DNA from: Candidatus Falkowbacteria bacterium
GTDB taxonomy: Bacteria > Patescibacteriota > Patescibacteriia > CAIXNZ01
Assembly: GCA_963774955.1 (NCBI GenBank)
Contig: CAVZGV010000004.1
Span: forward strand, 383,779 to 447,778
Length of the DNA: 64,000 bases
Direction: 5' to 3'
The translations under genes and the position numbers were made by a program. Of the stretch, positions 1 to 17,669 are shown piece after piece. Each line of letters starts with the position of its first letter. Within the stretch, counting starts at the first letter, position 1. The notes under the pieces were generated by a model. That model saw only the letters and a program-made list of their open reading frames with translations, had not been told where the DNA came from and ran no database searches.

Positions 1-66
1 ATCCAGATGAAGTCTTTATGTTTGAAATGCCCAAAGATCTGGCCAAGGAATTAAGCGTAGAGTAAA
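1..66 (+). CDS. 3' end of an upstream ORF (partial; last ~21 codons, ...PDEVFMFEMPKDLAKELSVE*)
   Basis: Open frame running in from the window edge to TAA at 64-66. Too short to assign a function. Confidence 0.25.
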
Positions 67-68
67 TT

Positions 69-923
69 ATGGAGAAAAAACTTTTAAAAATTTTAGGCTC
101 GCTTTTAGCCATAGTCTTTTTACTGATCGGTTTTGCGGTCAATTCTCAACAGGATCGTACCAAACTGGAAGTTGATTTTTTAGATGTAGGGCAGGGAGAT
201 GCCATTTTAATTAAAACTCCATATGAACAAAATATTCTAATTGACGGCGGTCCTAATGCCAAAGTTTTATCAGAGCTGGGTAAGAATCTGGCTTTTTTTG
301 ATAAAAAAATTGATCTGGTTGTTTTAACCCATCCGCATTCAGACCATGTGGCCGGTTTAGTCGAGGTATTAAGACGTTATAATGTCCAAAAAATATTAAT
401 GACCGGTGTTTTACATACTGCTCCGGATTATTTGGCATTTTTAAAGGAAATTGATGATCAGCAAATATCTGTTGACTATGCCAATGGTTTGCGCGATATT
501 AATTTGGGTCAAGACTTAACTTTAAAAATACTTTACCCGTTGAAGGATTTAAACGGGCAGAAAATTGAGGAACTTAATAATTCTTCGATTATTTTAAAGC
601 TGATTTATAAAAATAACACTTTTTTATTTACCGGTGATGCTGAAGAACTTGTGGAAACCGATTTATTAAGCGCTAAGCTTGATTTATCAGCCCAGGTTTT
701 AAAGGTCGCTCATCACGGCAGCAAATATAGCTCCAGCGATCCTTTTCTAACTGCAGTTAACCCTCAATATGCCGTGATTCAGGTGGGAGAAAATAATGCC
801 TTTGGCCATCCTCATCTGCGAACACTTGATAAATTGGCAAAGAGAAACATTGAAGTTCTAAGGACAGATCATTTGGGCACTATTCGCGCTGTTGCTGATG
901 GCAATATTGTATTATTTAAATAG
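69..923 (+). CDS. Exported MBL-fold metallo-hydrolase, ComEC/Rec2 C-terminal lactamase-like domain
   Basis: N-terminal signal/TM segment. Motifs DVGQGDAILIK, LVLTHPHSDHVAGL and KVAHHGSKYSS are typical of the ComEC beta-lactamase domain. Confidence 0.7.
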   Translation: MEKKLLKILGSLLAIVFLLIGFAVNSQQDRTKLEVDFLDVGQGDAILIKTPYEQNILIDGGPNAKVLSELGKNLAFFDKKIDLVVLTHPHSDHVAGLVEVLRRYNVQKILMTGVLHTAPDYLAFLKEIDDQQISVDYANGLRDINLGQDLTLKILYPLKDLNGQKIEELNNSSIILKLIYKNNTFLFTGDAEELVETDLLSAKLDLSAQVLKVAHHGSKYSSSDPFLTAVNPQYAVIQVGENNAFGHPHLRTLDKLAKRNIEVLRTDHLGTIRAVADGNIVLFK

Positions 924-989
924 CTTTAAAATTTGTTTAATCTTAGGCATTTAATTTTCAACAGTAAGTGATATTCTGATTAGGAAAAA

Positions 990-1000
990 TGTGGTATAAT
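990..1000 (+). promoter_or_regulatory. Extended -10 promoter element (TGgTATAAT) upstream of the giant repeat-protein gene
   Basis: tgtggtataat at 990-1000 in an AT-rich intergenic region about 115 nt before the ATG at 1116. Confidence 0.35.
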
Positions 1001-1115
1001 TAATATAAGTTAAGATCGAAGAATTTAATTAAACAATAAACGCTCTCAAAAGCTATTTTTTGAGATTATTTATCATTTAATTATCTCAAAATATTAAATT
1101 ATTTTTTAAAAAAAT

Positions 1116-4100
1116 ATGAGAACTTCAAAAAACAAATTTAAAATATATCTGGCTGTAGTCTCTCTGGCTGCTATGCTTATAAGTACGGCAGGCGCGTCTG
1201 CTGCCACCAGGATCGGCAGCAATATAAACTCTGCCGGTGATCTGACTGTTGACGGTGCTTTGAAATTTACTTCAGGCGCTGCTAACAATTATGTTTTAGC
1301 CAGTGATGCCAGCGGTAATGCCGCCTGGATTTCAGTGGCCACTCTTTTAGATTCTTCTCATGCCAATGTGACTACTAATGATCTGGATGAAGGCACTCTT
1401 AATTTATATTATGATTCGGCAGATGTTGAGACCAGAATTGATAATCGTAGTGGTATTGTCGGTGGTTTTGCTCCGCTTGATGCAGGGTTAAAGGTTCCAA
1501 GTTCATATTTGCCAAATTTAGTAATTACCAATGTCTATGCAGTTGCGGATATTGCTGCCAGGGACTTATTGACCGTTGAAGAAGGCGATGTGGCTGTGGT
1601 TGCTGATGCCGGTTTGTTAGAAAGCCGTTCTTATATTTATGACGGCACAGGCTGGCTGGAATTGAAAGCTCCGGTTGATTTATATTTAGCCGCCGCAAAT
1701 GATCTTTCAGATTTAGGCAATTTCGCTACTGCCAGAACTAATTTGGGTATTGGGACTACAGATATCCCCGAGTTTAACGGTTTGACTTTAAATAGTCTGA
1801 CAGCTGATTCATTTATTTATTCCGGCACGGGTGGATTACTTACCTCAACTGCTGCTCCTTTAGACGGGGAGTTGCTCATTGGTGTTGCTGGCTCGTCTCC
1901 GGTAGTGGCAACTTTAACAGGTACCACAAATCAGGTAGATGTAACCAATGGCGCAGGCTCCATAACTTTATCAACTCCACAAGATATAGATACTAGTGCA
2001 AGTCCACAATTCACAGGCTTAACTTTAAGCGGTACAACACTTTCAATTAACGGAATCGCTTATGCTTGGCCAGCTGCTGATGGCGCCTTGGGGGATGTTT
2101 TAACTACTGACGGTGCCGGCGCTTTAACCTGGACAACTGTGGCCGGTGCAGGTGAAACAAACACAGCTTCAAATGTTAATGTTGGCGGTCAGAGTTTATT
2201 TAAACAAAAAACAGGGGTAGACTTGGAATTCAGGGGCATTAATGCCGCTTCCAATAAGATAGGTATTGCGCTAGATGACCCGAATAATGAAGTAACAATT
2301 GATGTTAATGAAGCTAATTTAACTTTAGATAATCTCGGCGGAACTTTGAGTGAAACTCACGGTGGTACCAATCTGACAACTTATACTAGCGGCGATATTT
2401 TATATGCTTCGGCCGCAGATACTTTAAGTGCCTTACCAATAGGTGGTACTGATGGTTGGGTTTTAACAGTTAATACTGGTGCTCCGGTTTGGCAGGCTTT
2501 ACCTGGGGCAGGAGCAGAAACAGATCCGGTCTTTACTGGAAGCTTTACAGCCGCCGGTGATTTGTTAGTCGGTACAGGAGCAGGAACATATACTGCCGTT
2601 ACAGACGGTACTTCCGGCCAATTTTTAACTACTAACGGTTCAGGCGCTTTGAGCTGGGCAGCAGAAACAGATCCGGTGTATACAGCGTGGGATAAATCAA
2701 CCGGCATATCAATAACCGAATCACAAATATCAGATTTGCAGGCGTATCTGACATCAGAAACAGATTCTGTCTTTACTGGAAGTTTTACAGCCGCCGGTGA
2801 TTTGTTAGTCGGTACAGGAGCAGGAACATATACTGCCGTTACAGACGGTACTTCCGGCCAATTTTTAACTACTAACGGTTCAGGCGCTTTGAGCTGGGCA
2901 GCAGAAACAGATCCGGTGTATACAGCGTGGGATAAATCAACCGGCATATCAATAACCGAATCACAAATATCAGATTTGCAGGCGTATCTGACATCAGAAA
3001 CAGATTCTGTCTTTACTGGAAGTTTTACAGCCGCCGGTGATTTGTTAGTCGGTACAGGAGCAGGAACATATACTGCCGTTACAGACGGTACTTCCGGCCA
3101 ATTTTTAACTACTAACGGTTCAGGCGCTTTGAGCTGGGCAGCAGAAACAGATCCGGTGTATACAGCGTGGGATAAATCAACCGGCATATCAATAACCGAA
3201 TCACAAATATCAGATTTGCAGGCGTATCTGACATCAGAAACAGATTCTGTCTTTACTGGAAGTTTTACAGCCGCCGGTGATTTGTTAGTCGGTACAGGAG
3301 CAGGAACATATACTGCCGTTACAGACGGTACTTCCGGCCAATTTTTAACTACTAACGGTTCAGGCGCTTTGAGCTGGGCAGCAGAAACAGATCCGGTGTA
3401 TACAGCGTGGGATAAATCAACCGGCATATCAATAACCGAATCACAAATATCAGATTTGCAGGCGTATCTGACATCAGAAACAGATTCTGTCTTTACTGGA
3501 AGCTTTACAGCCGCCGGTGATTTGTTAGTCGGTACAGGAGCAGGAACATATACTGCCGTTACAGACGGTACTTCCGGCCAATTTTTAACTACTAACGGTT
3601 CAGGCGCTTTGAGCTGGGCAGCAGAAACAGATCCGGTGTATACAGCGTGGGATAAATCAACCGGCATATCAATAACCGAATCACAAATATCAGATTTGCA
3701 GGCGTATCTGACATCAGAAACAGATTCTGTCTTTACTGGAAGTTTTACAGCCGCCGGTGATTTGTTAGTCGGTACAGGAGCAGGAACATATACTGCCGTT
3801 ACAGACGGTACTTCCGGCCAATTTTTAACTACTAACGGTTCAGGCGCTTTGAGCTGGGCAGCAGAAACAGATCCGGTGTATACAGTGTGGGACAAATCAA
3901 CCGGCATATCAATAACCGAATCACAAATATCAGATTTGCAGACATATGCTCTAAGTGGAGCAAATGGAGACATTACCAGTTTAACCGGGTTGACTACTGC
4001 TCTTGGTCCGACTTATGGCGGTACTGGTTTAGCTACTTATGCTTTAGGCGATATTTTATATGCTTCAGCAGCTAATACTTTATCAGCCTTATCTTCAGGC

Positions 4101-7100
4101 GGAGCTGGTACATATTTGAAATCAGATGGTGCTGGCGGCTTAACTTGGGCTACTCCGGCTGGTAGCGGTACTATTACTGCTGTTGGTGATATAACCACAG
4201 GAGCCGCGTTTACACCTACAGCAGGCGCAGATGGCAATAATTTGTATTTTGAAGGCACAACCGGAAACGGTTTTGAAGTTAATCTGACAGCAGCAGATCC
4301 GGGATCAGATGTGATAGTGACAATCCCTGCAACAACCGGCACATTATTATTGAATACAAATAATTTATCTGACGTATCAAATACAGGAACAGCCAGGACA
4401 AATTTAGGTTTAGGCACGGGAGACAGCCCGCAATTTACAGGATTAACACTGACAAGCGATGAAACATTAAATGCACAGTCAGATTTACGGTTGGCAGATG
4501 CTGATTCATCAAATTGGGCGGCATTCCAGGCGCCAACGACAATTTCTACAAATTATACCTTGACTTTGCCGGCAGATGACGGGACAGCAGGACAATGTTT
4601 GACAACAAGCGACGGCACAGGGACATTAGCCTGGGCAGCTTGCGGAGCTGGAAGTGGAGCAGATACAGCATTATCAAATCTGGCATCAGTAGCCATTAAT
4701 ACATCATTATTACCGGGTACAACAGAATCAATAGCTTTAGGATCAGATTCATTTAACTGGTTGAATTTATACTTAGGGAATGGCGGAGTAGTTTTTGAAG
4801 GCGCAACAGGGGGAGTGGATACAAATGAGACTACCTTGGTAGTGACAGACCCGACAGCAGACCGGACAATAACCTTACCTAATGCAACAGGCACAGTATT
4901 ATTAAATACAAATAATTTATCGGATGTATCAAATACAGGAACGGCGAGAACAAGTTTAGGGTTGGGCACGGGAGATAGCCCGCAATTTACCGGATTAACA
5001 TTAACAAGCGATGAGACATTAAATGCACAGTCAGATTTACGGTTTGCAGATGCTGATTCATCAAATTGGGCAGCTTTCCAGGCGCCAACGACAATTGCAT
5101 CAAATTATACCTTGACCATGCCGGCAGATGACGGCACAGCGCTCCAGTTTTTACAGACTGACGGAAGCGGCGTTTTATCCTGGGCAACCCCAACAGTTAC
5201 ATCTGTAGCCTTTAGTGGCATAACTAATGGCATAAATACAACAGCCACTATGACGGTCGGAAGCGGAGCAACTTTAGCACCGTCAGGAACTGGTATAATA
5301 ACTGCTACCAGATATACAGGGTCAGGTTCTTCAACTAATGAAGTTGACTTAGGAACAGCAGAGGTAGCCGGTACTTTAACCGTAGTTAAGGGCGGTACGG
5401 GAATAACTGATTTTACTGGGGCGACTGGTAGTTTACCTTATTTTAATTCTGAAACTACTATGGATTTTACAAACGCCGGTACTAATAATAAATTCCTTAA
5501 AGGCGTCACAGGAGGAGCTCCAGCTTTTGCTTCAGTCGATTTGAGCAGTCCGGATGTGACAAGCACTTTGCCTATTGTTAGAGGTGGTACTGCTGCTACT
5601 ACGATAGGATCTGCTGGCAGAGTTGTATATAGTACAGGTACGGCTTATGGCACTTCCAGTGCCACAACCGAATTGGGACATATACTTATTTCAGGTACAA
5701 GTGGCACTGGTGCTCCGTCCTGGTTGGCTCAGGGTGCATCGGGGCAATTACTAGTATCAGGTGGGACAAATGTAGCACCGACTTGGACTTCCTTAGGTAG
5801 TGTACCAACTACGTCAAATAATGATGCTACTTTGCGTTCCAATGGTTCAGCTTGGGTTGAAAATACCTCCGTATTGATAAGTTCAACTGGAGGGATATCA
5901 TCCGCGAACGGTTCAGCCCTAACCATAAATTCTGGAACTACGGGTGATTTGGGGATTGGAACGGATGCAAGTATTGAAAATATAAATATAGGTACTGGTG
6001 GTGCCACTAAAACTATTATTTTTGGCAACAGTACTGGAGCAACCTCAGTTGCTATAAATACTGGTACCGGAGCATTAAATCTGGGAACGAATGCAATCGC
6101 TCATATCACAACATTGGGTTCTATAACAGGTGCCGCTTCAACCATAGTTCAATCAGGAACCGGTGACCTTAAAATTGAGACCCAGGGTACTGGCGGTTTA
6201 AAAATTGGTACTAATGCAGTAGCACAGAATATTACAATCGGCAACGGAACCGGAGCAACATCGCTTGTCTTAGAGGCTGGTACAGGCAATATCGATATTG
6301 GTAGCAATGATATTGCCAGGAGTATAAATATAGGTCAAACCTCTACAGCAGCTCAGGCTATTACCATAGGTAATGGTAATACAGGCACAGCAGTGGATAT
6401 AAAAGTCGGTACAGGAGCCTTAAATTTAGGGTCAAATGCTACAGTTCATACTACCACTTTAGGTTCAAATACTAGCACCTCAACCACTACAGTTCAATCA
6501 GGAACCGGCGGACTTAATTTAACTTCTGCAAGTACAGGTATAATAACCCTAGATTCGGGAACCACTGGTAGGATTGATATAGGAACTAATACTGGTGGCA
6601 AGACTATTAATATCGGGACAGGAGCAGCAGCTAATACCCTTAATATTGGTAATAATACTAGCGGCACAGGTACGTATATCAAAGCTGGAAACACCGGCAT
6701 TAATATATCAACTGGCGGGGCAGGGAATATAGACATATTGACTGACTCAACTGGTACTATGCACATTGATACAGGTACATCAGGTACGATAAATTTTGGA
6801 ACTGGCGATAGCGGAAAAACTATTAATATTGGTACCGGTAATGTCGCCAATACAATTAATATTGGTAATTCATCCTATGCTACTGCAATTCAGTTATATG
6901 GTACTGGCGGTGTAAAAATCGGCTCATCGAGTAGCACTGCGATTTTAAATCATTATTCTGGTACAGCTTCTCTGGATTTTGGCGCCACTGCTGCTAATAC
7001 CTGTGATGCCGCCACCATAACAGTGACTGGCGCTGCTGACGGAGATACTGTTACTCTTGGTGTACCTGCTGCTTTAGCCGGAAGCGATGCTAGTCAGAAT

Positions 7101-7217
7101 TTTTGGGGTTACGTAAGTGCTACAAATACTGTTACTGTAAAAAGATGTAATGTAACTGGTTCACCTTTAAGTGATCCTGCAGCTGCTACAGTACGCGCAG
7201 ATGTTTGGAAACACTAG
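1116..7217 (+). CDS. Giant secreted fibrous repeat protein (2033 aa), tail-fibre/adhesin-like
   Basis: Single uninterrupted ORF with an N-terminal signal peptide (cleavage likely after ASA). G/T/S/A-rich throughout. Recurrent motif G..GQ.LTT.GSGALSWA, six identical 80-aa tandem repeats, and a second diverged duplication (~aa 1070-1160 vs 1260-1345). The C-terminal region has 14-15-aa beta-helix-like repeats (TINIGTG..ANT.NIGN). Confidence 0.85.
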   Translation: MRTSKNKFKIYLAVVSLAAMLISTAGASAATRIGSNINSAGDLTVDGALKFTSGAANNYVLASDASGNAAWISVATLLDSSHANVTTNDLDEGTLNLYYDSADVETRIDNRSGIVGGFAPLDAGLKVPSSYLPNLVITNVYAVADIAARDLLTVEEGDVAVVADAGLLESRSYIYDGTGWLELKAPVDLYLAAANDLSDLGNFATARTNLGIGTTDIPEFNGLTLNSLTADSFIYSGTGGLLTSTAAPLDGELLIGVAGSSPVVATLTGTTNQVDVTNGAGSITLSTPQDIDTSASPQFTGLTLSGTTLSINGIAYAWPAADGALGDVLTTDGAGALTWTTVAGAGETNTASNVNVGGQSLFKQKTGVDLEFRGINAASNKIGIALDDPNNEVTIDVNEANLTLDNLGGTLSETHGGTNLTTYTSGDILYASAADTLSALPIGGTDGWVLTVNTGAPVWQALPGAGAETDPVFTGSFTAAGDLLVGTGAGTYTAVTDGTSGQFLTTNGSGALSWAAETDPVYTAWDKSTGISITESQISDLQAYLTSETDSVFTGSFTAAGDLLVGTGAGTYTAVTDGTSGQFLTTNGSGALSWAAETDPVYTAWDKSTGISITESQISDLQAYLTSETDSVFTGSFTAAGDLLVGTGAGTYTAVTDGTSGQFLTTNGSGALSWAAETDPVYTAWDKSTGISITESQISDLQAYLTSETDSVFTGSFTAAGDLLVGTGAGTYTAVTDGTSGQFLTTNGSGALSWAAETDPVYTAWDKSTGISITESQISDLQAYLTSETDSVFTGSFTAAGDLLVGTGAGTYTAVTDGTSGQFLTTNGSGALSWAAETDPVYTAWDKSTGISITESQISDLQAYLTSETDSVFTGSFTAAGDLLVGTGAGTYTAVTDGTSGQFLTTNGSGALSWAAETDPVYTVWDKSTGISITESQISDLQTYALSGANGDITSLTGLTTALGPTYGGTGLATYALGDILYASAANTLSALSSGGAGTYLKSDGAGGLTWATPAGSGTITAVGDITTGAAFTPTAGADGNNLYFEGTTGNGFEVNLTAADPGSDVIVTIPATTGTLLLNTNNLSDVSNTGTARTNLGLGTGDSPQFTGLTLTSDETLNAQSDLRLADADSSNWAAFQAPTTISTNYTLTLPADDGTAGQCLTTSDGTGTLAWAACGAGSGADTALSNLASVAINTSLLPGTTESIALGSDSFNWLNLYLGNGGVVFEGATGGVDTNETTLVVTDPTADRTITLPNATGTVLLNTNNLSDVSNTGTARTSLGLGTGDSPQFTGLTLTSDETLNAQSDLRFADADSSNWAAFQAPTTIASNYTLTMPADDGTALQFLQTDGSGVLSWATPTVTSVAFSGITNGINTTATMTVGSGATLAPSGTGIITATRYTGSGSSTNEVDLGTAEVAGTLTVVKGGTGITDFTGATGSLPYFNSETTMDFTNAGTNNKFLKGVTGGAPAFASVDLSSPDVTSTLPIVRGGTAATTIGSAGRVVYSTGTAYGTSSATTELGHILISGTSGTGAPSWLAQGASGQLLVSGGTNVAPTWTSLGSVPTTSNNDATLRSNGSAWVENTSVLISSTGGISSANGSALTINSGTTGDLGIGTDASIENINIGTGGATKTIIFGNSTGATSVAINTGTGALNLGTNAIAHITTLGSITGAASTIVQSGTGDLKIETQGTGGLKIGTNAVAQNITIGNGTGATSLVLEAGTGNIDIGSNDIARSINIGQTSTAAQAITIGNGNTGTAVDIKVGTGALNLGSNATVHTTTLGSNTSTSTTTVQSGTGGLNLTSASTGIITLDSGTTGRIDIGTNTGGKTINIGTGAAANTLNIGNNTSGTGTYIKAGNTGINISTGGAGNIDILTDSTGTMHIDTGTSGTINFGTGDSGKTINIGTGNVANTINIGNSSYATAIQLYGTGGVKIGSSSSTAILNHYSGTASLDFGATAANTCDAATITVTGAADGDTVTLGVPAALAGSDASQNFWGYVSATNTVTVKRCNVTGSPLSDPAAATVRADVWKH
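2515..3955 (+). repeat. 6 x 240-bp essentially identical tandem repeats inside the giant gene (each encodes 80 aa, ETDPVFTGSF...QAYLTS)
   Basis: Direct reading shows period 240, with 'gaaacagat(c/t)c(g/t)gtctttactgga' recurring at 2517, 2757, 2997, 3237, 3477 and 3717. Only synonymous or near-synonymous differences are seen in the first and last copies. Confidence 0.9.
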
Positions 7218-7244
7218 GTTAGTTAAAAGTCTAAATTATTACAG

Positions 7245-8684
7245 ATGTTAGAATCTAACTCAAATTTTATATCCAGATACTGGGTAATCGCTTTAATTTT
7301 GGTCATACCCTTAGCGGTTTTGGCGGCCAATGATTTTATATTGGATGATGTGGTTGAATTTGAACTGGATACTATTGATACTGTTCCTGTTGCGACGGTG
7401 ATTACGGCTGGTTCGGTTACGCCCGAACAGCAAGTGGTGGACATGAATGTGGAGACTAATTATATAGAAATCAGCGTATACACTGATACGGATATTACTT
7501 TTAATACCACGGTGGCCGGTCAGTATTTAAAATTTACCCCTGTTTCCAGCCCCAGTTTTACCTTGACGCCAGCATGTCCGACCACAACAGCCCGTCTGCA
7601 GGGCACAGGCGCAGCGCCGCTAACTGTTAGATTGGAAGTAACTACAGCCAATGCTTGCCTGGCCGGCATTACAGTCTCTGGTATTTCCGGCAATACTTCT
7701 GAATCCGGCAGCAGTGCAGTGTTTGCGGTTTATTTGAATACTCAGCCAACTGCTAATGTAACCATCAGTATTTCCAGCTCAGATAATTCCGAGGGCATTG
7801 CTTCTCCTGCTTCGCTGACCTTTACAAGTGCCAATTGGAATATTCCAAAGTTTATTACGGTGACCGGGGTGAATGATTTTATAGTTGATGGTAGCATTAC
7901 TTATTATATATTAACTGGTGCAGCCGTTTCTACAGATCTTATTTATAACGGTATAAATCCAACTGATGTGACCGTGGTTAATACTGATAATGACACTGGA
8001 GGCGGCGGCGGTGGTGGAGGAGGCGGCGGTGGTGGCGGCGGTGGTGGTGCTGTTATTCCCATTACACCCCCGGCAACTTTGCCAGCTGGCGTTTTTGTCG
8101 GAGATTTAATCAAACGCTCTGATATTCCGACTGTTTATTTTGTCGACGATGATTTTAAACGCCATTCATTCCCGAATAAAGAAACATATTTAAGCTGGTT
8201 TCCTGATTTTTCCAATCTCAAGATAGTTTCTGCCGAAACTCTGGCCGCAACTACTATGGGTTCAAATGTGACCCTCAGACCAGGCACTTATTTGGTTAAA
8301 GTTCAGTCAGTCCCCAAGGTTTTTGCTGTGGAACCGGCTGGTGTGATTAGATGGGTTCAGACTGAAGAGATAGCCAGAAAACTTTATGGTGATAATTGGA
8401 GTGAGCGAGTAATAGATCTAAATCCAGCCTTTTTTACCAATTACAGTGAAGGTGAGCCTATTGTTGCAGGCCAGCATCCGACCGGCAGTTTGGTTCAATG
8501 GCTAAACGGTCAAAGAGTTTACTATATTGAAAACGGAGTCAGACGTTATGTCACCTCTGAAGTTTTTATTAATAATAAATTCCAAAATATTTTTGTCTAT
8601 CGCCAGTTAACTCCTGATTTTTTCTATACCAATGGTCCTGATTATCCCATGCTGGGAATCCCAATAATGATGGACTTGAAATAA
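7245..8684 (+). CDS. Secreted/membrane-anchored protein with Ig/Calx-beta-like domain, an 18-residue poly-Gly linker and a C-terminal domain of unknown function
   Basis: N-terminal TM/signal segment. The motif ..TVTISISSSDNSEG...LTFTSANWNIPKFITVTGVNDFIVDG..YYIL is typical of adhesin Ig-like modules. The poly-Gly is encoded at ~7993-8048. It lies immediately downstream of the giant gene, so likely shares an operon. Confidence 0.7.
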   Translation: MLESNSNFISRYWVIALILVIPLAVLAANDFILDDVVEFELDTIDTVPVATVITAGSVTPEQQVVDMNVETNYIEISVYTDTDITFNTTVAGQYLKFTPVSSPSFTLTPACPTTTARLQGTGAAPLTVRLEVTTANACLAGITVSGISGNTSESGSSAVFAVYLNTQPTANVTISISSSDNSEGIASPASLTFTSANWNIPKFITVTGVNDFIVDGSITYYILTGAAVSTDLIYNGINPTDVTVVNTDNDTGGGGGGGGGGGGGGGGGAVIPITPPATLPAGVFVGDLIKRSDIPTVYFVDDDFKRHSFPNKETYLSWFPDFSNLKIVSAETLAATTMGSNVTLRPGTYLVKVQSVPKVFAVEPAGVIRWVQTEEIARKLYGDNWSERVIDLNPAFFTNYSEGEPIVAGQHPTGSLVQWLNGQRVYYIENGVRRYVTSEVFINNKFQNIFVYRQLTPDFFYTNGPDYPMLGIPIMMDLK

Positions 8685-8700: not shown

Positions 8701-8731
8701 AAAATCGCCCTGCCTCTTAGGGCGATTTTTA
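8701..8731 (+). terminator. Rho-independent terminator
   Basis: aaaatcgccct-gcctctt-agggcgatttttag: GC stem plus T-tract. Confidence 0.6.
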
Positions 8732-8828
8732 GTTGTTATTAATAAATGTCAAAACAGGGTAAGACTTGAAATAATATTATTTACCTGTTAAAATTCATAT
8801 AATTCTTAATAATAAGTTTATAAATTCT

Positions 8829-9410
8829 ATGGAAAAAACCCTAGTGATTATTAAACCCGATGGCGTGCAGCGCAATTTAATCGGTGAAATAATCAAACGT
8901 TTGGAACAAAGCGGCTTGAAACTAGTAGCTTTAAAGATGATGAGTGCAGATGAAAAGACGATTGAAAAACATTATACTATTGATCCTGAATGGCTAAAAA
9001 AAGTTGGCACAAAATCTATTGAATCTTATAAAAAGAAAGGACTAACACCGCCCAATGATGATCCGGTGGCTTTGGGTAAGGAAGTTTTAAATCGGCTCAA
9101 AGTTTATATTAGTAACGGACCAGTAGTGCCTATGGTCTGGGAGGGTAATCAAGCCGTAGAAATGGTTCGTAAGATTTGTGGTAGCACGGAGCCTTTGTCA
9201 GCTCTTTTAGGTACGATTAGAGGTGATTATACCCCAGAATCTTACCAATTAGCAGATGGAGATGAGCGTGCTATCCGTAATTTGGTTCATGCCTCAGGTA
9301 CTGCTGATGAAGCGGCCGAAGAGATCGACTTGTGGTTCGATAAGCCAGAAATTATGGAATACAAATTAGTGAGAGATTCCATTATTTATGATAAAGTCTG
9401 GGATATATAA
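8829..9410 (+). CDS. ndk: Nucleoside diphosphate kinase (long form with ~50-aa insertion)
   Basis: Motifs IIKPDGVQRNLIGEII and NLVHASGTADEAAEEIDLWF. At 193 aa it is longer than the canonical ~140 aa. Confidence 0.85.
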   Translation: MEKTLVIIKPDGVQRNLIGEIIKRLEQSGLKLVALKMMSADEKTIEKHYTIDPEWLKKVGTKSIESYKKKGLTPPNDDPVALGKEVLNRLKVYISNGPVVPMVWEGNQAVEMVRKICGSTEPLSALLGTIRGDYTPESYQLADGDERAIRNLVHASGTADEAAEEIDLWFDKPEIMEYKLVRDSIIYDKVWDI

Positions 9411-9997: not shown

Positions 9998-10201
9998 ATG
10001 CTGGAAGGATCGCCGATCAAGAGGAATTTGTGTAATGAGTGCAAACGACCCAATCCCGTAGGACAAACGAAATGTACACATTGTGGCGGTGTTTGTGACC
10101 CCAAAATAGTTGGTTACTTTAAGGGGGATGAAGAGGAAACCCCTGATTTCAATGACGTCGTAACCCATTCCGATGGAACTAAAAGAATTATCGGGTTATG
10201 A
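9998..10201 (+). CDS. Small zinc-ribbon protein, paralogue of 9701..9964
   Basis: Consensus SD (aaaggaggggaaaaATG). Motif CNECKRPNPVGQTKCTHCGG with the same Cys spacing. Confidence 0.5.
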   Translation: MLEGSPIKRNLCNECKRPNPVGQTKCTHCGGVCDPKIVGYFKGDEEETPDFNDVVTHSDGTKRIIGL

Positions 10202-10323
10202 GGTTTAAGCCCTGGACCAGTAATGGTTCAGGGTTTTAAAATTTTTGCTAAAATTAGGAAAATAATTACAAATTAGGTAAAATTTACTTGACAAATTCAT
10301 TTTCATGTTTTAAGCTGAATTAT

Positions 10324-10449
10324 ATGAATTTATTAGACAAAAGCATAATTGAAGAAAATTCCGAGCTATGGCTAGCCAATATAATGGTTTTATTAGTCGT
10401 AGTCGTCTTGGGCACTGTCACAGTGGCTAGAGTTTTAAATATGTTCTAA
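10324..10449 (+). CDS. Small peptide (41 aa, MNLLDKSIIEENSELWLANIMVLLVVVVLGTVTVARVLNMF) with C-terminal TM helix
   Basis: Preceded by TTGACA at 10288-10293 and followed by a terminator. No SD, so likely leaderless. Confidence 0.3.
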   Translation: MNLLDKSIIEENSELWLANIMVLLVVVVLGTVTVARVLNMF

Positions 10450-10465
10450 ACTTACTGATATATTT

Positions 10466-10499
10466 AAAAAAGGCCACTGCTAAAACAGTGGTCTTTTTG
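10466..10499 (+). terminator. Rho-independent terminator
   Basis: aaaaaggccactg-ctaaaa-cagtggtcttttt. Confidence 0.55.
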
Positions 10500-10524
10500 A
10501 TTATAGTTTAGAGTTCTTTAAAAT

Positions 10525-10599
10525 GGGGGCGTAGCTCAGTGAAAGAGCAGCGGGCAAACATCCCGCAGGTCGTGGGTTCAATTCCCACCGCCCCTACCA
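10525..10599 (+). tRNA. tRNA gene, isotype undetermined (anticodon loop reads CAAACAT, formally anticodon AAC with A33)
   Basis: By-eye cloverleaf: acceptor GGGGGCG/CGCCCCU, D-arm GCUC-AGUGAAA-GAGC, anticodon stem GCGGG/CCCGC, T-arm GUGGG-UUCAAUU-CCCAC, encoded ACCA. The D-loop lacks G18G19 and position 33 is A, both non-canonical. Confidence 0.55.
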
Positions 10600-10626
10600 T
10601 TTTCCGAAGACAGGTTTTCATATCTT

Positions 10627-10685
10627 GTGGGTGCGAATCCGTCTCCGGCGGGCAATTGCGAGGTTCGAACCCTCGTACGCCCACT
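10627..10685 (+). other. tRNA-like fragment: 7-bp acceptor-like pairing (GUGGGUG/CGCCCAC) plus perfect T-arm (CGAGG-UUCGAAC-CCUCG), but no D or anticodon arms
   Basis: Only ~58 nt with a 25-nt middle segment. Could be a degenerate or pseudo-tRNA or a tRNA-like structural RNA. Confidence 0.25.
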
Positions 10686-10703
10686 TAACATGTTTTTTAG
10701 TGT

Positions 10704-10777
10704 CAGGGGATAGCTTAAGTAAAGCGCCAAAACTACCCTTTTGGAGACTGTTGGTTCAAATCCAGCTCCCCTGACCA
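10704..10777 (+). tRNA. tRNA gene, isotype undetermined (anticodon arm cannot form a 5-bp stem with a 7-nt loop)
   Basis: Acceptor CAGGGGA/UCCCCUG, U8A9, T-arm GUUGG-UUCAAAU-CCAGC, encoded ACCA. The anticodon region CCAAA-ACUACCCU-UUUGG gives an 8-nt loop (or a 6-bp stem with a 6-nt loop). The D-loop lacks GG. Confidence 0.5.
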
Positions 10778-10805
10778 ATTTATAACCTTAAAAGGAGGGT
10801 TACAC

Positions 10806-11078
10806 ATGCCAGCGGAAAAGGGACCAGATCATGTAAGCGTAGCGGAGTTTTTTGCCCTGGAAAGTTTTGGAGACAGGCTGGCTGACCAACTTGACCGGCT
10901 AAATACTCGGCATAGCAATTATTGCCAGGAAACAGTCGCGCTCAAGCAGTCATTGGCTAATGGCGGTCGACGCCAAGAATTGAGGCAAGCACGGTTGCAT
11001 GATTTAGAAACGCGACTTTTACCCCAGTTACAGGCACGCCTGCATTCATTGCAGGATCAAAAAATCGGGCTTTATTAA
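10806..11078 (+). CDS. Hypothetical small protein (90 aa), GC-richer, coiled-coil-like
   Basis: Consensus SD (aaaaggagggttacacATG). Local GC is about 50% against a ~34% background. Followed by a terminator. Confidence 0.5.
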   Translation: MPAEKGPDHVSVAEFFALESFGDRLADQLDRLNTRHSNYCQETVALKQSLANGGRRQELRQARLHDLETRLLPQLQARLHSLQDQKIGLY

Positions 11079-11087
11079 GGCCCAGAG

Positions 11088-11114
11088 AAAGCTCCCTTCA
11101 CCGGGAGCTTTTTA
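11088..11114 (+). terminator. Rho-independent terminator
   Basis: aaagctccc-ttcacc-gggagcttttt. Confidence 0.55.
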
Positions 11115-11411
11115 AATTAATTTGTGCTATAATATAAGTGACCAGGCAATTAGCTTATGTTCTAGGACAATCTTATTTAATGGGAGGCTCATATTTTATA
11201 GCGCCGTGGCGTTATAATGCGGCCACCCACTTGATTCGCAGCTGGAAACATCAAGCTTATTGCCTGTTCATAAAAATCAGCCCTTTGTTTGTAAAGGACT
11301 GATTTTTTATTTGAAGACAAATATCCCCAGATTTGGGCTTAAATTATAGTCTAAAGGCTGAAATTATGCTAAAATAAAGAGAGGATACTTAAGTATTTTT
11401 CTGAAATTTTT

Positions 11412-13085
11412 ATGTTGAGCAGTAAAAAATTAAAAGATATATTAATCAAGCCTGGTTATGTCAAAGAGGCTGATTTTGAAGTGGCTGCTGCTGACGCCAA
11501 AGCCAAAAAAATTAGTCTAGAACAATCATTGGTTGAAAACAATTTACTTAAGGATGAATACTTGGGCCAATTGATTGCGGATAGCCTTAAGTACCGTTTA
11601 GTAAATTTAACAAAAAAAGCAATTGTCCCCGAAGTTTTAAGATTGATTCCAGAGTTAGTAGCTAAAAAACAGCTCATCGTTGCTTTTGCCAAAGATAATG
11701 AAGGGTTACATTTGGCCATGAATGAACCGGATAATTTACAGTTACAACATTTTATTGCCAAAAACACCGGAGAAAAAATTATTACTTATTATGCAACTCC
11801 CAAGGATATACTGAAAGCAATTAGCCTGTATCATAAGGAATTAAAACAAGAATTTTCTGAAATTGTTTTAAAAAATTTAAGTGAGATTAAGGCGGATAAT
11901 AAAGAACAATTGCCGATTATTAAAATAGTAGAGTCATTAATTCAGTATGCTTATGAAAATCGAGCTTCTGATATTCATATTGAGCCTCATGATGAGGATA
12001 CACTGATTCGTTTCCGCATCGACGGCGTCTTACATGATGTTTTGGCCATACCCAAAAATTACCATGATTTGATAGTCTCCCGAGTTAAAATTATGTCTAA
12101 TTTAAGGACTGATGAGCATAAAAGCAGCCAGGACGGTAAAATCCGATTTAATCTGGCTGAAGAAAAATTAGATATACGCGTATCAATTTTACCGATTGTT
12201 GAGGGCGAGAAAATTGTGATGAGACTTTTAGCAAAAAAATTGCGTCAGTTGAATCTGGATAATTCTGGTTTAAATCCCAAGGATGTAAAAAAGGTCAAAA
12301 AAGCCATCAAAAGTCCCTGGGGCATGATATTGGCCACCGGTCCGACGGGCAGCGGCAAGACAACAACCTTATATTCAATATTAAAACTGTTAAATTCTCG
12401 AGATATTAATATTTCCACCATTGAAGATCCGGTAGAATATGATGTTGACGGTATTAATCAAATCCAGGTCGATGTGGAAACTAATTTAACTTTTGCCAAG
12501 GGGTTGCGTGCGATTTTGCGCCAAGATCCGGATGTGATCATGGTTGGTGAAATTCGTGATGAAGAAACCGCTAAAATAGCCATAAATTCAGCGATGACCG
12601 GCCATTTAGTTTTATCTACTTTGCATACCAATGATTCAGCTACCGCCTTGCCACGTCTTTTAGATATGAAGGTCAAACCATATTTGATTGCCTCTACAGT
12701 TTTAATGGTAATTGCCCAGCGTTTGGTCAGAAAAATTTGTCCGAATTGCATTGCAAGTTATAACCTGTCAGCTGAAGAATTTGGTAAGTTATTGCCCAAA
12801 GGCATGGCAGCAAAATTTATTGACGGCAAAAAGAATGTTACCCTTTATAAAGGTGAAGGCTGCAAGTTGTGTCATAAAACCGGGTATACTGAACGTCTGG
12901 GAATCTTTGAGGTTTTAGAAGTAAGCCAAACTATTCGCGATTTAATTGTGGCCAAAGCAACTAGCCAGGACATAAAAAAACAGGCAATTTCCGAGGGTAT
13001 GACAACGATGCTGGAAGACGGGATGGAAAAGGTTTTTATGGGCCAGACTACTTTGGAGGAGATTTTAAGAGCAACTAAGGAATAA
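11412..13085 (+). CDS. pilB: Type IV pilus assembly ATPase PilB (GspE family)
   Basis: Walker A GPTGSGKTTT, Asp box and His box, plus a C-terminal CxxC...CxxC tetracysteine. 557 aa. Confidence 0.9.
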   Translation: MLSSKKLKDILIKPGYVKEADFEVAAADAKAKKISLEQSLVENNLLKDEYLGQLIADSLKYRLVNLTKKAIVPEVLRLIPELVAKKQLIVAFAKDNEGLHLAMNEPDNLQLQHFIAKNTGEKIITYYATPKDILKAISLYHKELKQEFSEIVLKNLSEIKADNKEQLPIIKIVESLIQYAYENRASDIHIEPHDEDTLIRFRIDGVLHDVLAIPKNYHDLIVSRVKIMSNLRTDEHKSSQDGKIRFNLAEEKLDIRVSILPIVEGEKIVMRLLAKKLRQLNLDNSGLNPKDVKKVKKAIKSPWGMILATGPTGSGKTTTLYSILKLLNSRDINISTIEDPVEYDVDGINQIQVDVETNLTFAKGLRAILRQDPDVIMVGEIRDEETAKIAINSAMTGHLVLSTLHTNDSATALPRLLDMKVKPYLIASTVLMVIAQRLVRKICPNCIASYNLSAEEFGKLLPKGMAAKFIDGKKNVTLYKGEGCKLCHKTGYTERLGIFEVLEVSQTIRDLIVAKATSQDIKKQAISEGMTTMLEDGMEKVFMGQTTLEEILRATKE

Positions 13086-13163
13086 AATTGGTAAAATGAC
13101 AAATAACAAAATTTAAAAATCAAAAAAATATCAAATATCAAAATTTAAATAACAAATAGGAAC

Positions 13164-14285
13164 ATGGGTAAAATTTTAAGCGCCTTGAGTGAAAAAAGGC
13201 GCTGGGAATTTAAAAATTGGAATTGGCATATCAATTTTGGCTTCAATGTTGAGAAAATTTTATTTGCCAAAACTTTGGCAACTTTATTACGTTCTAAAAT
13301 CAATATTGCTGACTCCTTGGTTATCTTGGAAGCGCAATTTTCCGGGAGTTTTAAACAAGCAGTCGGTGCTGTAAGGAAAGATGTGGAAAACGGTCAGACG
13401 TTATCCAGCGCTTTGGCCAAACATCCAAAATATTTTAATAAAATTTATGTTGGCCTGGTTAATGTCGGTGAAAAAAGCGGTCGTTTAGTCGAGTGTTTGC
13501 AAAGAGTTGCGAAACAGCAGGAAAAAGATTTGCAATTATCACGCAGTATCCAGGCAGCGTCTTTATACCCGGCCATTATTTTTATCTGTTTAGCTGGTTT
13601 GGCAGCCTTATTAAGTTATTATATCTTGCCTCAGTTGATTATTGTTTTTACCTCTTTTAATATGCCATTGCCATGGACGACTCTGGCCTTGTTATGGTTA
13701 GCTGAATTTATCAGGCAATATGGCCCATTACTTCTGATTTTAATAATTGCGGGTATTTTACTTTTTCGCTTTTTGGTTAACCAAGAAAAAATTAGGCCTC
13801 ATTGGCAGGGTTTTTTAATCAGCCTGCCGTTTTTGGGAGAACTTTTGAAAAAATGGAATCTGGCGCGCTTTTGCCGGATTTTAGGCACATTATTGGAAAG
13901 CGGTGTTTCTATTCACGAAGCATTAGATACTGCAATTGAAAGTTTGAGTAATGAAGTCTACAGAAATTTATTGAAAAAAGTTAAGGCCAAAGTATTGGGT
14001 GGCTTGTCTTTGGGTGAGGCTATTGAAACTTTATATAAAATTGATATTTTCCCGCGGTTTGTTTTTCAGTTAATTAGTGTCGGTGAACGAACCGGTACGC
14101 TGGAAGAAAACTTAATTTATCTGGCTGAATTTTACGAGGATGAAGTGGAAAATATCAGTAAAAACATGGCCAGCATTATTGAACCGGTTTTATTAATTGT
14201 TATCGGTATTATAGTGGCCGTGATTGGTTCCGCGATTATTTCGCCGATTTATGAGTTTATCGCTACCCTGAGCGAAAGCCTCTAA
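13164..14285 (+). CDS. pilC: Type IV pilus inner-membrane platform protein PilC (GspF family)
   Basis: Two GspF-like repeats, three TM segments and conserved ..GE.SG.L. motifs. Confidence 0.85.
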   Translation: MGKILSALSEKRRWEFKNWNWHINFGFNVEKILFAKTLATLLRSKINIADSLVILEAQFSGSFKQAVGAVRKDVENGQTLSSALAKHPKYFNKIYVGLVNVGEKSGRLVECLQRVAKQQEKDLQLSRSIQAASLYPAIIFICLAGLAALLSYYILPQLIIVFTSFNMPLPWTTLALLWLAEFIRQYGPLLLILIIAGILLFRFLVNQEKIRPHWQGFLISLPFLGELLKKWNLARFCRILGTLLESGVSIHEALDTAIESLSNEVYRNLLKKVKAKVLGGLSLGEAIETLYKIDIFPRFVFQLISVGERTGTLEENLIYLAEFYEDEVENISKNMASIIEPVLLIVIGIIVAVIGSAIISPIYEFIATLSESL

Positions 14286-14380
14286 AAAAGTCTAAAGGCT
14301 AATTTATAAAGTCTGAGTTAATAAATAAAAAACTTCCATAATTTAGACTTTAGCCTTTATACTTTAGACCTATTATTTTT

Positions 14381-14809
14381 ATGAACAAAGGTTTTACTTT
14401 AATTGAGTTGATAATTGTTATTTGCATTTTTTTATTGTTAGGCGCAATTTTTTGGCCGATAGGCGCTAATTTTTTCAGCCAAGAATTGGCCAGTAAAGGT
14501 CAGCAACAAATTATCTGGATTTTAAAACAAGCTCGGGCCAATGCCATAAATCAAAAAAATAATTCTGCTTTTGGTGTCTATCTGGAAAAAGGCCAGGCCA
14601 CTTTATTTCAGGGAGATAATTACACCGATAGAATCACAAGCGAGGATATAATTTACACTCTGCCAAAGATTGTAACTATTGTTGATTTAAACGAAATTGT
14701 TTTTGAGCCCAATACCGGTCAAGTTTCTACTCCGGGGACAATTAAACTTAATAGTCCGTCCTTAAGCAGAGAAATTGTGATCAACCAGCTGGGAGTTATT
14801 GATTATTAA
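14381..14809 (+). CDS. Prepilin-type N-terminal cleavage/methylation domain protein (pseudopilin)
   Basis: MNKG|FTLIELIIVICIFLLLG leader plus hydrophobic helix. Confidence 0.75.
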   Translation: MNKGFTLIELIIVICIFLLLGAIFWPIGANFFSQELASKGQQQIIWILKQARANAINQKNNSAFGVYLEKGQATLFQGDNYTDRITSEDIIYTLPKIVTIVDLNEIVFEPNTGQVSTPGTIKLNSPSLSREIVINQLGVIDY

Positions 14810-14816
14810 ATTTAAT

Positions 14817-17657: not shown

Positions 17658-17669
17658 AAATAAATCTTT

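Follow-up and report, generated by a model that had tools for sequence, protein, structure and literature searches.

Organization of the Locus

The window (the whole 64,000-nt stretch analyzed, from a Candidatus Falkowbacteria bacterium) carries a fiber gene of 2033 codons and, directly downstream, the gene for a 479-aa partner protein (Table 1), both as the initial annotation had described them. The gap between the two genes is 27 nt and lacks a terminator, and a terminator-like hairpin is found only after the partner gene, in agreement with the single operon proposed earlier; judged from this arrangement, the fiber and partner genes are a bicistronic unit. A promoter scan of the region 5′ of the fiber gene (924–1115) found no strong consensus promoter, and an extended −10-like element (TGtGGTATAAT) can be read near position 990.

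The neighbors of the operon are a metallo-beta-lactamase-fold gene, ndk, two tRNA genes, and a type IV pilus (T4P) cluster (PilB, PilC, pseudopilins, and PilM), with no phage genes among them. The T4P cluster begins 2.7 kb downstream, and its pseudopilins, at 14381–20130, carry PF07963. In the closest relative (L001), synteny with the housekeeping neighbors is kept and a T4P cluster is also nearby. The relative with this synteny, a MAG of Candidatus Parcubacteria, bears out the earlier view that the organism belongs to the CPR.

Table 1. Features of the fiber operon, in positions of the window.
Feature	Position	Strand	Remarks
Region 5′ of fiber gene	924–1115	+	AT-rich, intergenic; probably holds the promoter
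Fiber gene	1116–7217	+	2033 aa, T/G/A/S-rich, module mosaic
Predicted Sec signal peptide, fiber aa 1–29	1116–1202	+	MRTSKNKFK, hydrophobic core, ASA↓AT; sequence reading
N-terminal base module, fiber aa 30–245	1203–1850	+	conserved; has NLSDL..AR.NLG.G shaft motif
Shaft modules, fiber aa 246–466	1851–2514	+	also in many unrelated giant proteins, at 50–74% identity
Six in-frame 240-bp (80-aa) tandem units	2515–3954	+	TRF and unit-by-unit count
Older internal duplication	4294–5140	+	4294–4588 vs. 4846–5140, 86% nt identity
Gly/Thr/Ile-rich irregular repeats, fiber aa 1583–1940	5862–6935	+	solenoid-like by sequence
C-terminal tip module, fiber aa ~1941–2033	6936–7217	+	conserved C1963 and C2011; ends in RADVWKH
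Partner gene	7245–8684	+	479 aa; 76% identical to L001 partner
parN, partner aa 28–140	7326–7664	+	conserved N-domain, two conserved Cys; putative fiber docking
Ig-like, Calx-beta-type spacer, partner aa ~141–250	7665–7994	+	transitive homology
17-Gly run, partner aa 252–268	7998–8048	+	flexible linker
parC, partner aa 269–479	8049–8681	+	terminal ~200-aa domain; putative envelope anchor
Intrinsic-terminator-like hairpin	8701–8739	+	12-bp stem, then T run; closes operon

Anatomy of the Fiber

The fiber is identical to the public-data protein P0001, and its composition (T 16.9%, G 13.7%, A 11.8%, and S 9.9%) is indeed that of a G/T/S-rich fibrous protein. A basic n-region, a hydrophobic core, and an AxA site are found in both the fiber and the partner, and the signal peptides claimed for the two proteins are thus upheld as predictions from sequence. 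Alignments of fiber homologs begin directly past the predicted cleavage site, and this conserved start of the mature protein is consistent with the predicted signal peptides. The base module that follows is also N-terminal in P0008, P0009, P0015, P0024, L004, and L005.

Further along the fiber, the recurring tail-fiber-like motif that had been noted (G..GQ.LTT.GSGALSWA) recurs as G..GQ.LT..G.G...W in eight copies, or in 10 when looser W-anchored variants are included, and the shaft motif NLSDL..ARxNLGLG in three. The second, diverged duplication is likewise real; at the protein level, aa 1054–1174 and 1238–1357 share 78–93% identity, and each copy bears a further NLSDV..ART.LGLG motif. In the Gly/Thr/Ile-rich region (repeats at about aa 1583–1956), lag peaks at ~11, 72, and 115 residues confirm the C-terminal repeats of the initial annotation, but not the beta-helix-like fold assigned to them, as the AlphaFold2 model of this region has a pLDDT of about 50–80 and no regular strands. 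Stretches homologous to this region are present in P0016, P0034, P0035, P0040, and P0041. The distinct C-terminal module is real and comprises ~90 aa with two conserved Cys.

Pfam searches with the fiber and the partner gave only spurious or sub-threshold matches, for example, DUF4025, and the same was true of PHROGs and NCBIfam, where three PHROGs of unknown function fell on the ETDPVYTAWDKS stretch. The YadA-like head and the intramolecular chaperone that had been suggested for the fiber found no counterpart, in that Pfam returned no YadA anchor, head, or stalk (E ≤ 0.1), no chaperone, and no Peptidase_S74 (PF13884) on it. Some distant matches of the fiber searches do carry Peptidase_S74 (PF13884). 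Nor did Pfam detect a Rib domain in the fiber or the N_methyl motif PF07963 (class III signal) in the fiber or the partner, and there is no LPXTG near the fiber C-terminus (...VRADVWKH). Two AlphaFold2 monomer models of the fiber were of low confidence (mean pLDDT 55.9 and 52.3), and Foldseek found no match to them in the PDB at E ≤ 1e-3. Weak matches of the fold searches were mostly to phage fibers. A single match in BFVD (E 2.5e-5) was discarded as not structural because of its TM score of 0.15 and rmsd of 48 Å.

The Tandem Repeat Array

TRF describes the array at 2515–3941 as having a period of 240, 5.9 copies, 99% matches, and zero indels, and an array of this kind is not explicable by chance. 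Units 2–4 are identical (100% over 720 bp), and units 1, 5, and 6 carry three, one, and 10 mismatches, respectively, those of unit 6 lying mostly within the final 13 nt. The description of six essentially identical units therefore holds for the count and for the three central units, but the edge units diverge. A family module makes up the first half of each 80-aa unit and recurs at about 50% identity in L005, L046, and L050; the array itself has no counterpart in L001. The perfect identity over 720 bp, the diverging edge units, and the lack of the array in L001 agree with the very recent expansion proposed earlier and support an expansion that is both recent and lineage-specific.

It is unlikely that the repeat count is an assembly artifact and that the true number of units is not six. 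Short reads cannot count three consecutive identical units spanning 720 bp, and the contig of the short-read relative L001 does break within the fiber gene. Against an artifact, however, the single-nucleotide differences are distributed non-uniformly among the units (C/T at unit position 29 reads C, T, T, T, C, T), and the array is embedded in a 455-kb contig; these two features point to a resolved path, probably obtained with long reads. Unequal recombination among identical 240-bp units would change the length of the shaft in 80-aa steps, each of which would amount to ~6–7 nm if the rise per residue equals that of phage P7-1 gp92.

Relationships of the Base and the Tip to Phage Proteins

The profile of the fiber N-module matches PDB 9zd7 (E 4.2e-12), as does profile A7 (E 6.6e-6), with the match spanning only the short repeated shaft motif NLSDL..ARxNLGLG. 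This structure is that of gp92, the short tail fiber of Pakpunavirus P7-1, a trimer of 410 Å × 25 Å. Profiles of the tip, the shaft, the solenoid-like region, and parC retrieved nothing beyond 9zd7 from the PDB. Together with a tip held in common with phage proteins, the match to a trimeric phage short tail fiber confirms the tail-fiber flavor recognized initially.

The tip is 70–76% identical to proteins from two genuine phage contigs (L053 and L054), 49% identical to a protein of the podovirus MW202554, and 47–50% identical to the tips of the L002 and L038 fibers. When 50,697 phage genomes were searched by tblastn, the three records retrieved included two of one and the same phage (HTVC008M and MW202554). 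The phages bearing the tip have a GC content of 49–56% vs. 39% for the bacterium, and a tip conserved across this gap could be a folding or trimerization nucleus rather than a receptor-binding domain. At the same time, the identity of 70–76% with phage proteins hints at traffic of modules between phages and episymbionts. The tip of the L001 fiber differs from that of the window fiber, such that tips vary even among close relatives and the N-module stays constant, which suggests an orientation of the fiber in which the N-terminal base is proximal to the cell. The N-module and parN are both absent from IMG/VR (2.9 million viral contigs).

The Partner Protein

The Ig-like module of the partner shares 50–60% identity with repeat modules whose parent proteins exceed the Pfam threshold for Calx-beta, and homologous modules in P0130, P0081, and P0101 reach 56–60 bits for Calx-beta. 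Because PF03160 (Calx-beta) has no direct match on partner aa 141–250 even at E ≤ 1 and only the homologous modules score, the relationship to Calx-beta is transitive only. With the full-length partner as query, matches to this Calx-beta-like module dominated the homolog search. The poly-Gly run, given earlier as 18 residues, has 17; the L001 partner has 26, and eight of nine other homologs have 4–12. A phmmer search of the PDB with the partner matched solely scFv Gly linkers, which are artifacts.

The C-terminal domain noticed earlier corresponds to parC, for which exhaustive HMMER searching yielded 4493 cluster representatives at E ≤ 1e-3. A word-indexed homolog search with parC gave zero matches, a failure of sensitivity rather than an absence. 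The domain is nearly always terminal, being placed at the extreme C-terminus or just past the signal peptide of thousands of large proteins, several of them labeled as CPR. No recognized wall-binding domain (PG_binding_1, SLH, or LysM) was detected in the window partner by Pfam. Five partner homologs (L038, L041, L045, L048, and L050) do carry PG_binding_1 above the Pfam threshold, and that of L004 ends in a TM helix with a basic tail. A role of the partner as an anchor thus receives indirect support from the PG_binding_1 domains or C-terminal TM helix of its homologs, but not from a PG_binding_1 domain of its own.

A Conserved Cassette in CPR Bacteria

A fiber-like gene followed by a parN gene occurs at at least nine loci from Parcubacteria, Falkowbacteria, Saccharibacteria, and metagenomes (the window, L001, L002, L004, L005, L038, L045/L046, L050, and L051), and every locus with enough upstream DNA has a fiber-like gene 5′ of parN. 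This conserved pairing supports the view that the partner is a dedicated companion of the fiber. The order by which we recognize the CPR fiber-anchor cassette, an N-module gene and then a parN-domain gene, is present in the window. A third cassette gene, encoding a small protein with an N-terminal TM segment and the signature LLPxDxTPTMAV...YDYxANKIIKVGPV, is found in every relative examined (L001, L002, L004, L005, L038, L039, L041, L045/L046, L050, and L051). Neither tblastn nor an HMM search located this gene in the 64-kb window, and the system here may therefore be incomplete or differently organized. Our search of the literature on tail-fiber-like proteins in Patescibacteria and Parcubacteria found no description of the fiber/parN cassette.

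A Possible Host-Attachment Device

With the anatomy of the two genes, their operon, the conserved pairing, the anchor domains of homologs, and the phage ties of the shaft motif and the tip observed directly, we consider it reasonably probable that the operon encodes a two-part cell-surface fiber, phage-like and tethered by the partner, that contacts a target surface. The fiber would be exported by Sec and then probably form a homotrimer, as phage fibers do, with the base (aa 30–245) proximal to the cell. Its shaft would consist of beta modules of the phage-tail-fiber type, the six 80-aa units, and the Gly/Thr-rich repeats, and would end in the small Cys-containing tip. The partner would also be exported and may dock the fiber base through parN, with the Ig-like spacer and the 17-Gly linker joining parN to parC, which would hold the assembly on the cell envelope. 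The distal tip, exchanged with phage fiber-like proteins, would contact the target, most plausibly the host cell of the episymbiont. The fiber/partner pair is accordingly named here as a plausible candidate for the host-attachment device that the initial annotation had in mind.

A surface appendage that does not serve host attachment, such as a general particle or biofilm adhesin, a layer acting as a spacer or coat, or a phage decoy, is rather unlikely. In its favor, no finding connects the tip with a host receptor, its strong conservation over phages and CPR is atypical of an element that sets specificity, and giant proteins with parC are so numerous that many may serve generic surface roles. 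However, the tip is swapped among close relatives, as a specificity element would be, and all cultivated CPR bacteria are epibionts that depend on contact with a host (PMC12206443). The partner, for its part, might be a chaperone for fiber assembly or secretion instead of a structural anchor, which we consider quite unlikely. Its gene lies directly 3′ of the fiber gene, in the same position as the phage Tfa/gp38-type tail-fiber assembly genes, which sit right after fiber genes; but the protein carries a signal peptide of its own and, further along, an Ig-like spacer joined by poly-Gly to a terminal domain, and its homologs bear PG_binding_1 or a TM anchor, an architecture that speaks for a structural tether. 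Among the cassette products, the small TM protein would be a better candidate for a chaperone.

The genomic context bears on the origin of the fiber and on the system to which it belongs. Membership in the neighboring T4P system, for example, as a pilus-associated adhesin, might be suggested by the cluster 2.7 kb downstream, by the same proximity in L001, and by the P0009 fiber, which also adjoins a T4P cluster. We regard it as very improbable, since ndk, two tRNA genes, and the terminator stand between the operon and the cluster, the signal of the fiber is of the Sec type without an N-methylation signal, and the flanks of L002, L004, L005, L038, L050, and L051 have no T4P genes; it is rejected because the link is not conserved across cassette loci. 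That the gene is a prophage or phage-derived gene for a virion tail fiber is more improbable still, even though the shaft motif is common to P7-1 gp92, the tip is common to proteins of phage contigs, and the weak fold matches are mostly to phage fibers. The gene context leads us to reject it: the flanks hold the metallo-beta-lactamase-fold gene, ndk, tRNA genes, and T4P genes in place of phage genes, and synteny with the housekeeping neighbors is kept in L001. The Sec signal peptide and the absence of the N-module and parN from the 2.9 million viral contigs also stand against it.

Comparison with Known Fibers and Adhesins

The tethered fiber proposed here resembles trimeric phage tail fibers (P7-1 gp92, 9zd7; T5/T7-type) in its repeated NLSDL..ARxNLGLG motif, its modular and presumably beta-rich shaft, and the combination of a conserved, putative N-terminal attachment module with an exchangeable C-terminal tip, the domain of which occurs in phage proteins. 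In contrast to these, its gene lies on the chromosome of a CPR bacterium and is not surrounded by phage genes, and the protein has a Sec signal, lacks Peptidase_S74, and is paired with a putative wall or membrane anchor protein rather than with a baseplate. It is four times longer than gp92, whose trimeric state it would probably share.

Nucleotide-identical tandem repeats are characteristic of alpha C and Rib of group B Streptococcus, Esp of Enterococcus, and SasG of S. aureus, in which copy number varies by recombination, altering protein length and antigenicity. The fiber shares with the alpha C/Rib type the DNA-identical, in-frame tandem units of ~80 aa and the predicted character of a Sec-exported surface protein, but it has no Rib domain or LPXTG, its repeat sequence is unrelated, and its anchoring would occur in trans via the partner. 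Like the trimeric autotransporter adhesins of the YadA family, it would be a long, fibrous adhesin with Gly-rich short repeats, and JGI labels two matches of the fiber family (P0009 and P0026) autotransporter adhesins; unlike them, it has no anchor, head, or stalk Pfam domain, and its C-terminus is a small soluble tip module rather than a beta-barrel. A likeness to giant RTX, LapA, and Calx-beta adhesins is confined to the partner, the middle module of which is 50–60% identical to repeats that score for Calx-beta and weakly for LapA; the partner has one such module, as a spacer, and the fiber none.

Implications for Host Contact

Little has been established so far on how the ultrasmall CPR/Patescibacteria recognize and hold host cells, with experiments implicating type IV pili and a small number of unnamed adhesins (PMC10633639, PMC12206443, PMC11880426). 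The cassette, with its phage-like fiber, putative dedicated anchor, and small membrane protein, is a concrete candidate for the holding of hosts. A bolder idea, which we put forward tentatively and with some doubt, is that CPR episymbionts took over phage receptor-binding modules to form a chromosomally encoded, trimeric host-recognition fiber, tethered to the wall by the fiber/small-TM/parN cassette, the tip of which is exchanged with phages targeting the same hosts and the reach of which is tuned by recombination of the identical 80-aa units. If this is true, the cassette would help to set the host range, beside type IV pili. In addition, parC, a domain of thousands of large proteins without a match in Pfam, NCBIfam, or the PDB, may serve more generally to anchor proteins at the surface.

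The fibre-partner operon and its repeat array

The gene for the giant fibre protein and that for its secreted partner are separated by 27 nt, with no terminator found between them and a hairpin with a T tract after the partner gene, so that the two form a bicistronic operon, as the initial annotation had proposed. A metallo-beta-lactamase-fold gene lies upstream of the pair, and on the downstream side ndk and two tRNA genes precede a type IV pilus cluster; no phage genes were found around the pair in the window. Public data contain an identical fibre protein, encoded on a contig of 455 kb, and the closest relative is L001 (GCA_026395755.1), a locus in a Candidatus Parcubacteria MAG that is syntenic across the whole region (identity to the window of 76% for the partner, 91% for PilB and 93% for PilC).

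Within the fibre gene, Tandem Repeats Finder reports an array with a period of 240 bp (5.9 copies, 99% matches, zero indels), and a unit-by-unit count gives six in-frame units. The six units claimed at the outset are thus present, but only units 2-4 are identical to each other; unit 1 has 3 differences, close to its 5' end, unit 5 has a single one and unit 6 has 10, most of them within the final 13 nt. Unequal crossing-over leaves a homogeneous core with diverged edge units, and the array pattern is therefore the outcome expected of this process; given 720 bp of perfect identity, unequal homologous recombination would be the expected route of length change, polymerase slippage being unlikely for a 240-bp unit. 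P0002, a Parcubacteria relative with 44% identity to the fibre overall, has no counterpart of the identical array, its sole repeat being a 189-bp unit in 2.1 copies at 88%, and the expansion to six units is therefore specific to the lineage and, as first suggested, recent. The tip of P0002 also differs from that of the fibre, which implies that tips are exchangeable.

Three further claims were confirmed, namely an older, diverged internal duplication (86% nucleotide identity), a recurring tail-fibre-like motif (G..GQ.LT..G.G...W, 8-10 occurrences) and a separate C-terminal module of ~90 residues with two Cys. Residues 1583-1956 consist of irregular Gly/Thr/Ile-rich repeats, with peaks at lags of about 11, 72 and 115 residues; the beta-helix proposed for this C-terminal region did not appear, as the Gly/Thr region lacks regular secondary structure in a low-confidence AlphaFold2 monomer model. 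Two fibre regions were modelled as monomers from shallow alignments trimmed by hand (17 and 11 rows), with mean pLDDT values of 55.9 (aa 28-620) and 52.3 (aa 1380-2033); values above 80 are confined to a small beta domain (aa ~137-187), and the tip is modelled with five strands at 60-78. Obligate trimers are usually poorly modelled as monomers. Foldseek found no match for these models in the PDB at E<=1e-3, the weak top matches being Ig-like domains and the phage proteins GVE2 ORF18, HylP and Klebsiella phage depolymerases, and a search of BFVD returned fibre-type viral proteins with very poor geometry.

Positions of features in the window and in related loci (nucleotides unless marked aa)
Sequence	Feature	Position	Remark
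Window	Fibre ORF	1116-7217 (+)	2033 aa
Window	240-bp array, Tandem Repeats Finder	2515-3941	
Window	Six in-frame array units	2515-3954	
Window	Older duplication	4294-4588 vs 4846-5140	
Window	Partner ORF	7245-8684 (+)	479 aa
Partner	Signal peptide	aa 1-27	
Partner	parN	aa 28-140	two conserved Cys
Partner	Middle module	aa ~141-250	
Partner	parC	aa 269-479 (window 8049-8681)	211-aa C-domain
Window	Hairpin and T tract	8701-8729	12-bp stem
Window	ndk	8829-9410	193 aa
Window	tRNA	10704-10777	
Window	Type IV pilus cluster	11412-20130	complete
Window	PilB	11412-13085	
Window	PilC	13164-14285	
Window	GspH-like pseudopilin	14381-14809	
Window	952-aa N-methyl protein	14799-17657	DUF4215 and MopE metal-binding motifs
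Window	PilM	18610-19686	
L001	Partner	6015-7466	
L001	Small TM gene	4788-5522	
L002	Small TM gene	10027-10488	
L004	Small TM gene	4398-4805	
L005	Small TM gene	43-594	
L038	Small TM gene	4381-4896	
L045	Small TM gene	1709-2197	
L050	Small TM gene	13477-14217	
L051	Small TM gene	10459-11163	
L001	23S_rRNA_IVP gene	5565-5927	PF05635
L050	23S_rRNA_IVP gene	14258-14662	PF05635
L051	23S_rRNA_IVP genes	11243-11590 and 1503-1916	PF05635
L050	Second giant gene	3-7601	2532 aa
L003	Phage protein with fibre-type C-terminal tip	7752-8246	range for the three 49-76% identity
L053	Phage protein with fibre-type C-terminal tip	7596-8282	
L054	Phage protein with fibre-type C-terminal tip	6912-8315	

The partner family and its pairing with fibres

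The partner combines a conserved N-domain (parN), a middle module, a Gly run and a C-terminal domain (parC). The middle module had been described as Ig-like; it is 50-60% identical to repeats of proteins that score above threshold for Calx-beta in Pfam, although the partner itself has no Pfam match there. The Gly run counts 17 rather than 18 residues.

A search of GTDB genomes with the N-terminal module of the fibre gave two true relatives, L004 from a Saccharibacteria MAG and L005 from a Falkowbacteria MAG, and in both a parN-domain gene lies just downstream. Conversely, a metagenome search with a parN alignment gave 12 loci, and a fibre-like gene precedes the parN gene in each of the three whose upstream sequence exceeds 2 kb (L038, L045 and L046), the L038 fibre carrying the same tip as the window fibre. 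The loci of P0015 and P0024 (L050 and L051) and of P0008 (L002), proteins that match the fibre, have the same arrangement. Together, these loci extend the fibre-parN pairing to at least nine loci, with zero exceptions among loci that can be judged. The anatomy of the two proteins and this pairing are solid.

The other end of the partner varies. PG_binding_1 occurs in the homologues of L038, L041, L045, L048 and L050, the first half of parC in those of L005, L041, L050 and L051, and the L004 protein has a hydrophobic helix and then RRRLKKK at its end. A Gly run follows parN in L001 (26 residues) and in eight of the nine other homologues (4-12 residues). A constant N-domain, a flexible linker and varying, putatively envelope-binding ends have the appearance of a tether architecture. 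The partners of the window and L001 were not retrieved from a word-indexed collection of 5.8 billion proteins, while their fibre neighbours were; proteins with long homopolymers may have been filtered out of that collection.

The parC domain

A word-indexed homologue search with parC gave zero matches, and in an exhaustive HMMER search 4493 cluster representatives passed E<=1e-3 and 545 passed E<=1e-30. In nearly all of them parC forms either the very end of the protein on the C-terminal side or the part that immediately follows the N-terminal signal; the proteins reach 3512 aa, and in one of them a poly-Gly run precedes the domain. Named members include proteins of Candidatus Uhrbacteria, a 'Patescibacteria group bacterium' and one Desulfobacula MAG. 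No relative of parC was found in Pfam, NCBIfam or the PDB. parC appears to be an as yet undescribed module for anchoring or sorting at protein ends, a role that its terminal position on many large exported proteins would fit. In L050, a second giant gene lies directly upstream of the fibre gene, and its product has a parC-like stretch in the last ~310 residues (about 190-310 residues from the end), which shows that other giants use the domain in cis. L051 also encodes a 701-aa protein with parC at its end.

Shared modules and phage relations

The fibre is matched by 57 other proteins (1150-3405 aa), mostly across only 2-26% of its length. Its N-module (aa 1-245) recurs in P0008, P0009, P0015 and P0024, invariably at the N-terminus after the signal peptide, and all mature proteins sharing it start with A-T-x-I-G-x-N-I. 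Its shaft modules (aa 246-310 and 319-415) recur in many giant proteins at 50-74% identity, the Gly/Thr-rich region is common to P0016, P0034, P0035, P0040 and P0041, and the C-terminal module, including both Cys and the terminal R-x-D-V-W-x-H, is common to P0008 and P0009. The fibre is thus a mosaic of widely shared modules.

Some of these parts are of phage type. Among solved structures the N-module profile matches a single one, 9zd7 ('short tail fiber gp92', E 4.2e-12), the match spanning six copies of the motif (L)xxxxNLSDLxNxxxARxNLGLG, and the fibre contains the same NLSDL motif three times (around aa 190-227, 1077-1114 and 1261-1298). The tip shares 49% identity with the C-terminal end of a podovirus MW202554 protein (164 aa) and 70-76% with the C-terminal ends of proteins encoded on the IMG/VR contigs L053 and L054; both contigs are phage by PHROGs (terminase, portal, major head protein) and have a GC content of 49-56% vs 39% in the window. 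The products of the tip genes in both contigs, like that of a further phage contig (L003), begin with a signal-like hydrophobic segment. In L053 and L054 the tip genes lie inside the head-gene block, adjoining major head or portal genes, a position that speaks for a fibre or decoration protein of the head and less for a tail fibre. Could the fibre itself be a virion gene? This candidate was rejected: neither its N-module nor parN was found among 2.9 million viral contigs, so the fibre is regarded as a cellular protein made of phage-type parts.

Membership in known families was likewise rejected. Phage tail fibres share with the fibre a modular shaft, a constant base and a swappable tip, but the fibre gene lies outside any phage module and lacks an S74 domain; nucleotide-identical ~80-aa repeats recall the Rib/alpha-C-type surface proteins of Gram-positive bacteria, but the fibre has neither a Rib domain nor an LPXTG motif. 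Unlike the YadA family it has no YadA anchor, and unlike type IV pilins no N-methyl signal. As for the tip, which is strongly conserved across phages and CPR bacteria, it may serve as a nucleus for folding instead of binding a receptor.

Proposed mechanism

The best-supported reading, as far as function can be inferred, is a two-component surface fibre. The fibre would be exported by Sec and is probably trimeric, parN would hold its constant N-terminal base, and parC would fix the partner to the envelope through the Ig-like spacer and Gly hinge, with PG_binding_1 or a TM helix possibly taking the place of parC in relatives; the variable shaft and exchangeable tip would then be directed outwards. 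From the 0.82 Å per residue in gp92, a rough extrapolation gives about 160 nm for the mature fibre and about 6.5 nm for each 80-aa unit. The lifestyle of cultivated CPR bacteria, together with tip swapping, points to a host cell as the possible target. No description of the fibre-parN cassette was found in the literature, the Patescibacteria work found being on type IV pili and unnamed adhesins; we rate the fibre as a probable surface fibre adhesin, the new elements being the trans-anchoring partner family and parC.

Accompanying genes

A gene for a small protein of 135-246 aa, a third cassette member seen in every relative, adjoins the fibre or partner gene in L001, L002, L004, L005, L038, L039, L041, L045/46, L050 and L051. 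The protein has an N-terminal TM helix and a highly conserved motif of ~70 aa, LKKIIxLPxDxTPTMAVIxDxxxLKKQQPxFFxxAKNGDxLIIYPDxAIIYDYxANKIIKVGPVQ. Pfam scans of two members, L001 and L045, gave no match; the longer members have a C-terminal extension that is LytR_C-like by eye only. Neither tblastn nor an HMM search found it in the whole 64-kb window. A 23S_rRNA_IVP gene follows the small TM gene in L001, L050 and L051, genes of this family being repeatedly inserted between the small TM and partner genes of cassette relatives; the window cassette has none.

The type IV pilus cluster encodes four N-methyl pseudopilins, among them the 952-aa protein, a giant minor pilin that is itself a candidate adhesin. 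Its linkage to the fibre is seen in the window/L001 lineage and at one other locus and was not seen at six other cassette loci; the cluster is probably a system separate from the fibre operon.

Between the two lie ndk and the tRNA genes. The best-scoring NDK Pfam stretch in the ndk product covers residues 83-174, the match being split into two stretches; typical NDKs have ~140 aa, and an insertion or N-terminal extension is suggested. One tRNA, supported by Rfam at 50 bits, has an undetermined anticodon in the ARAGORN call ('ac' at position 32), which may reflect either an unusual anticodon loop or a pseudo-tRNA.
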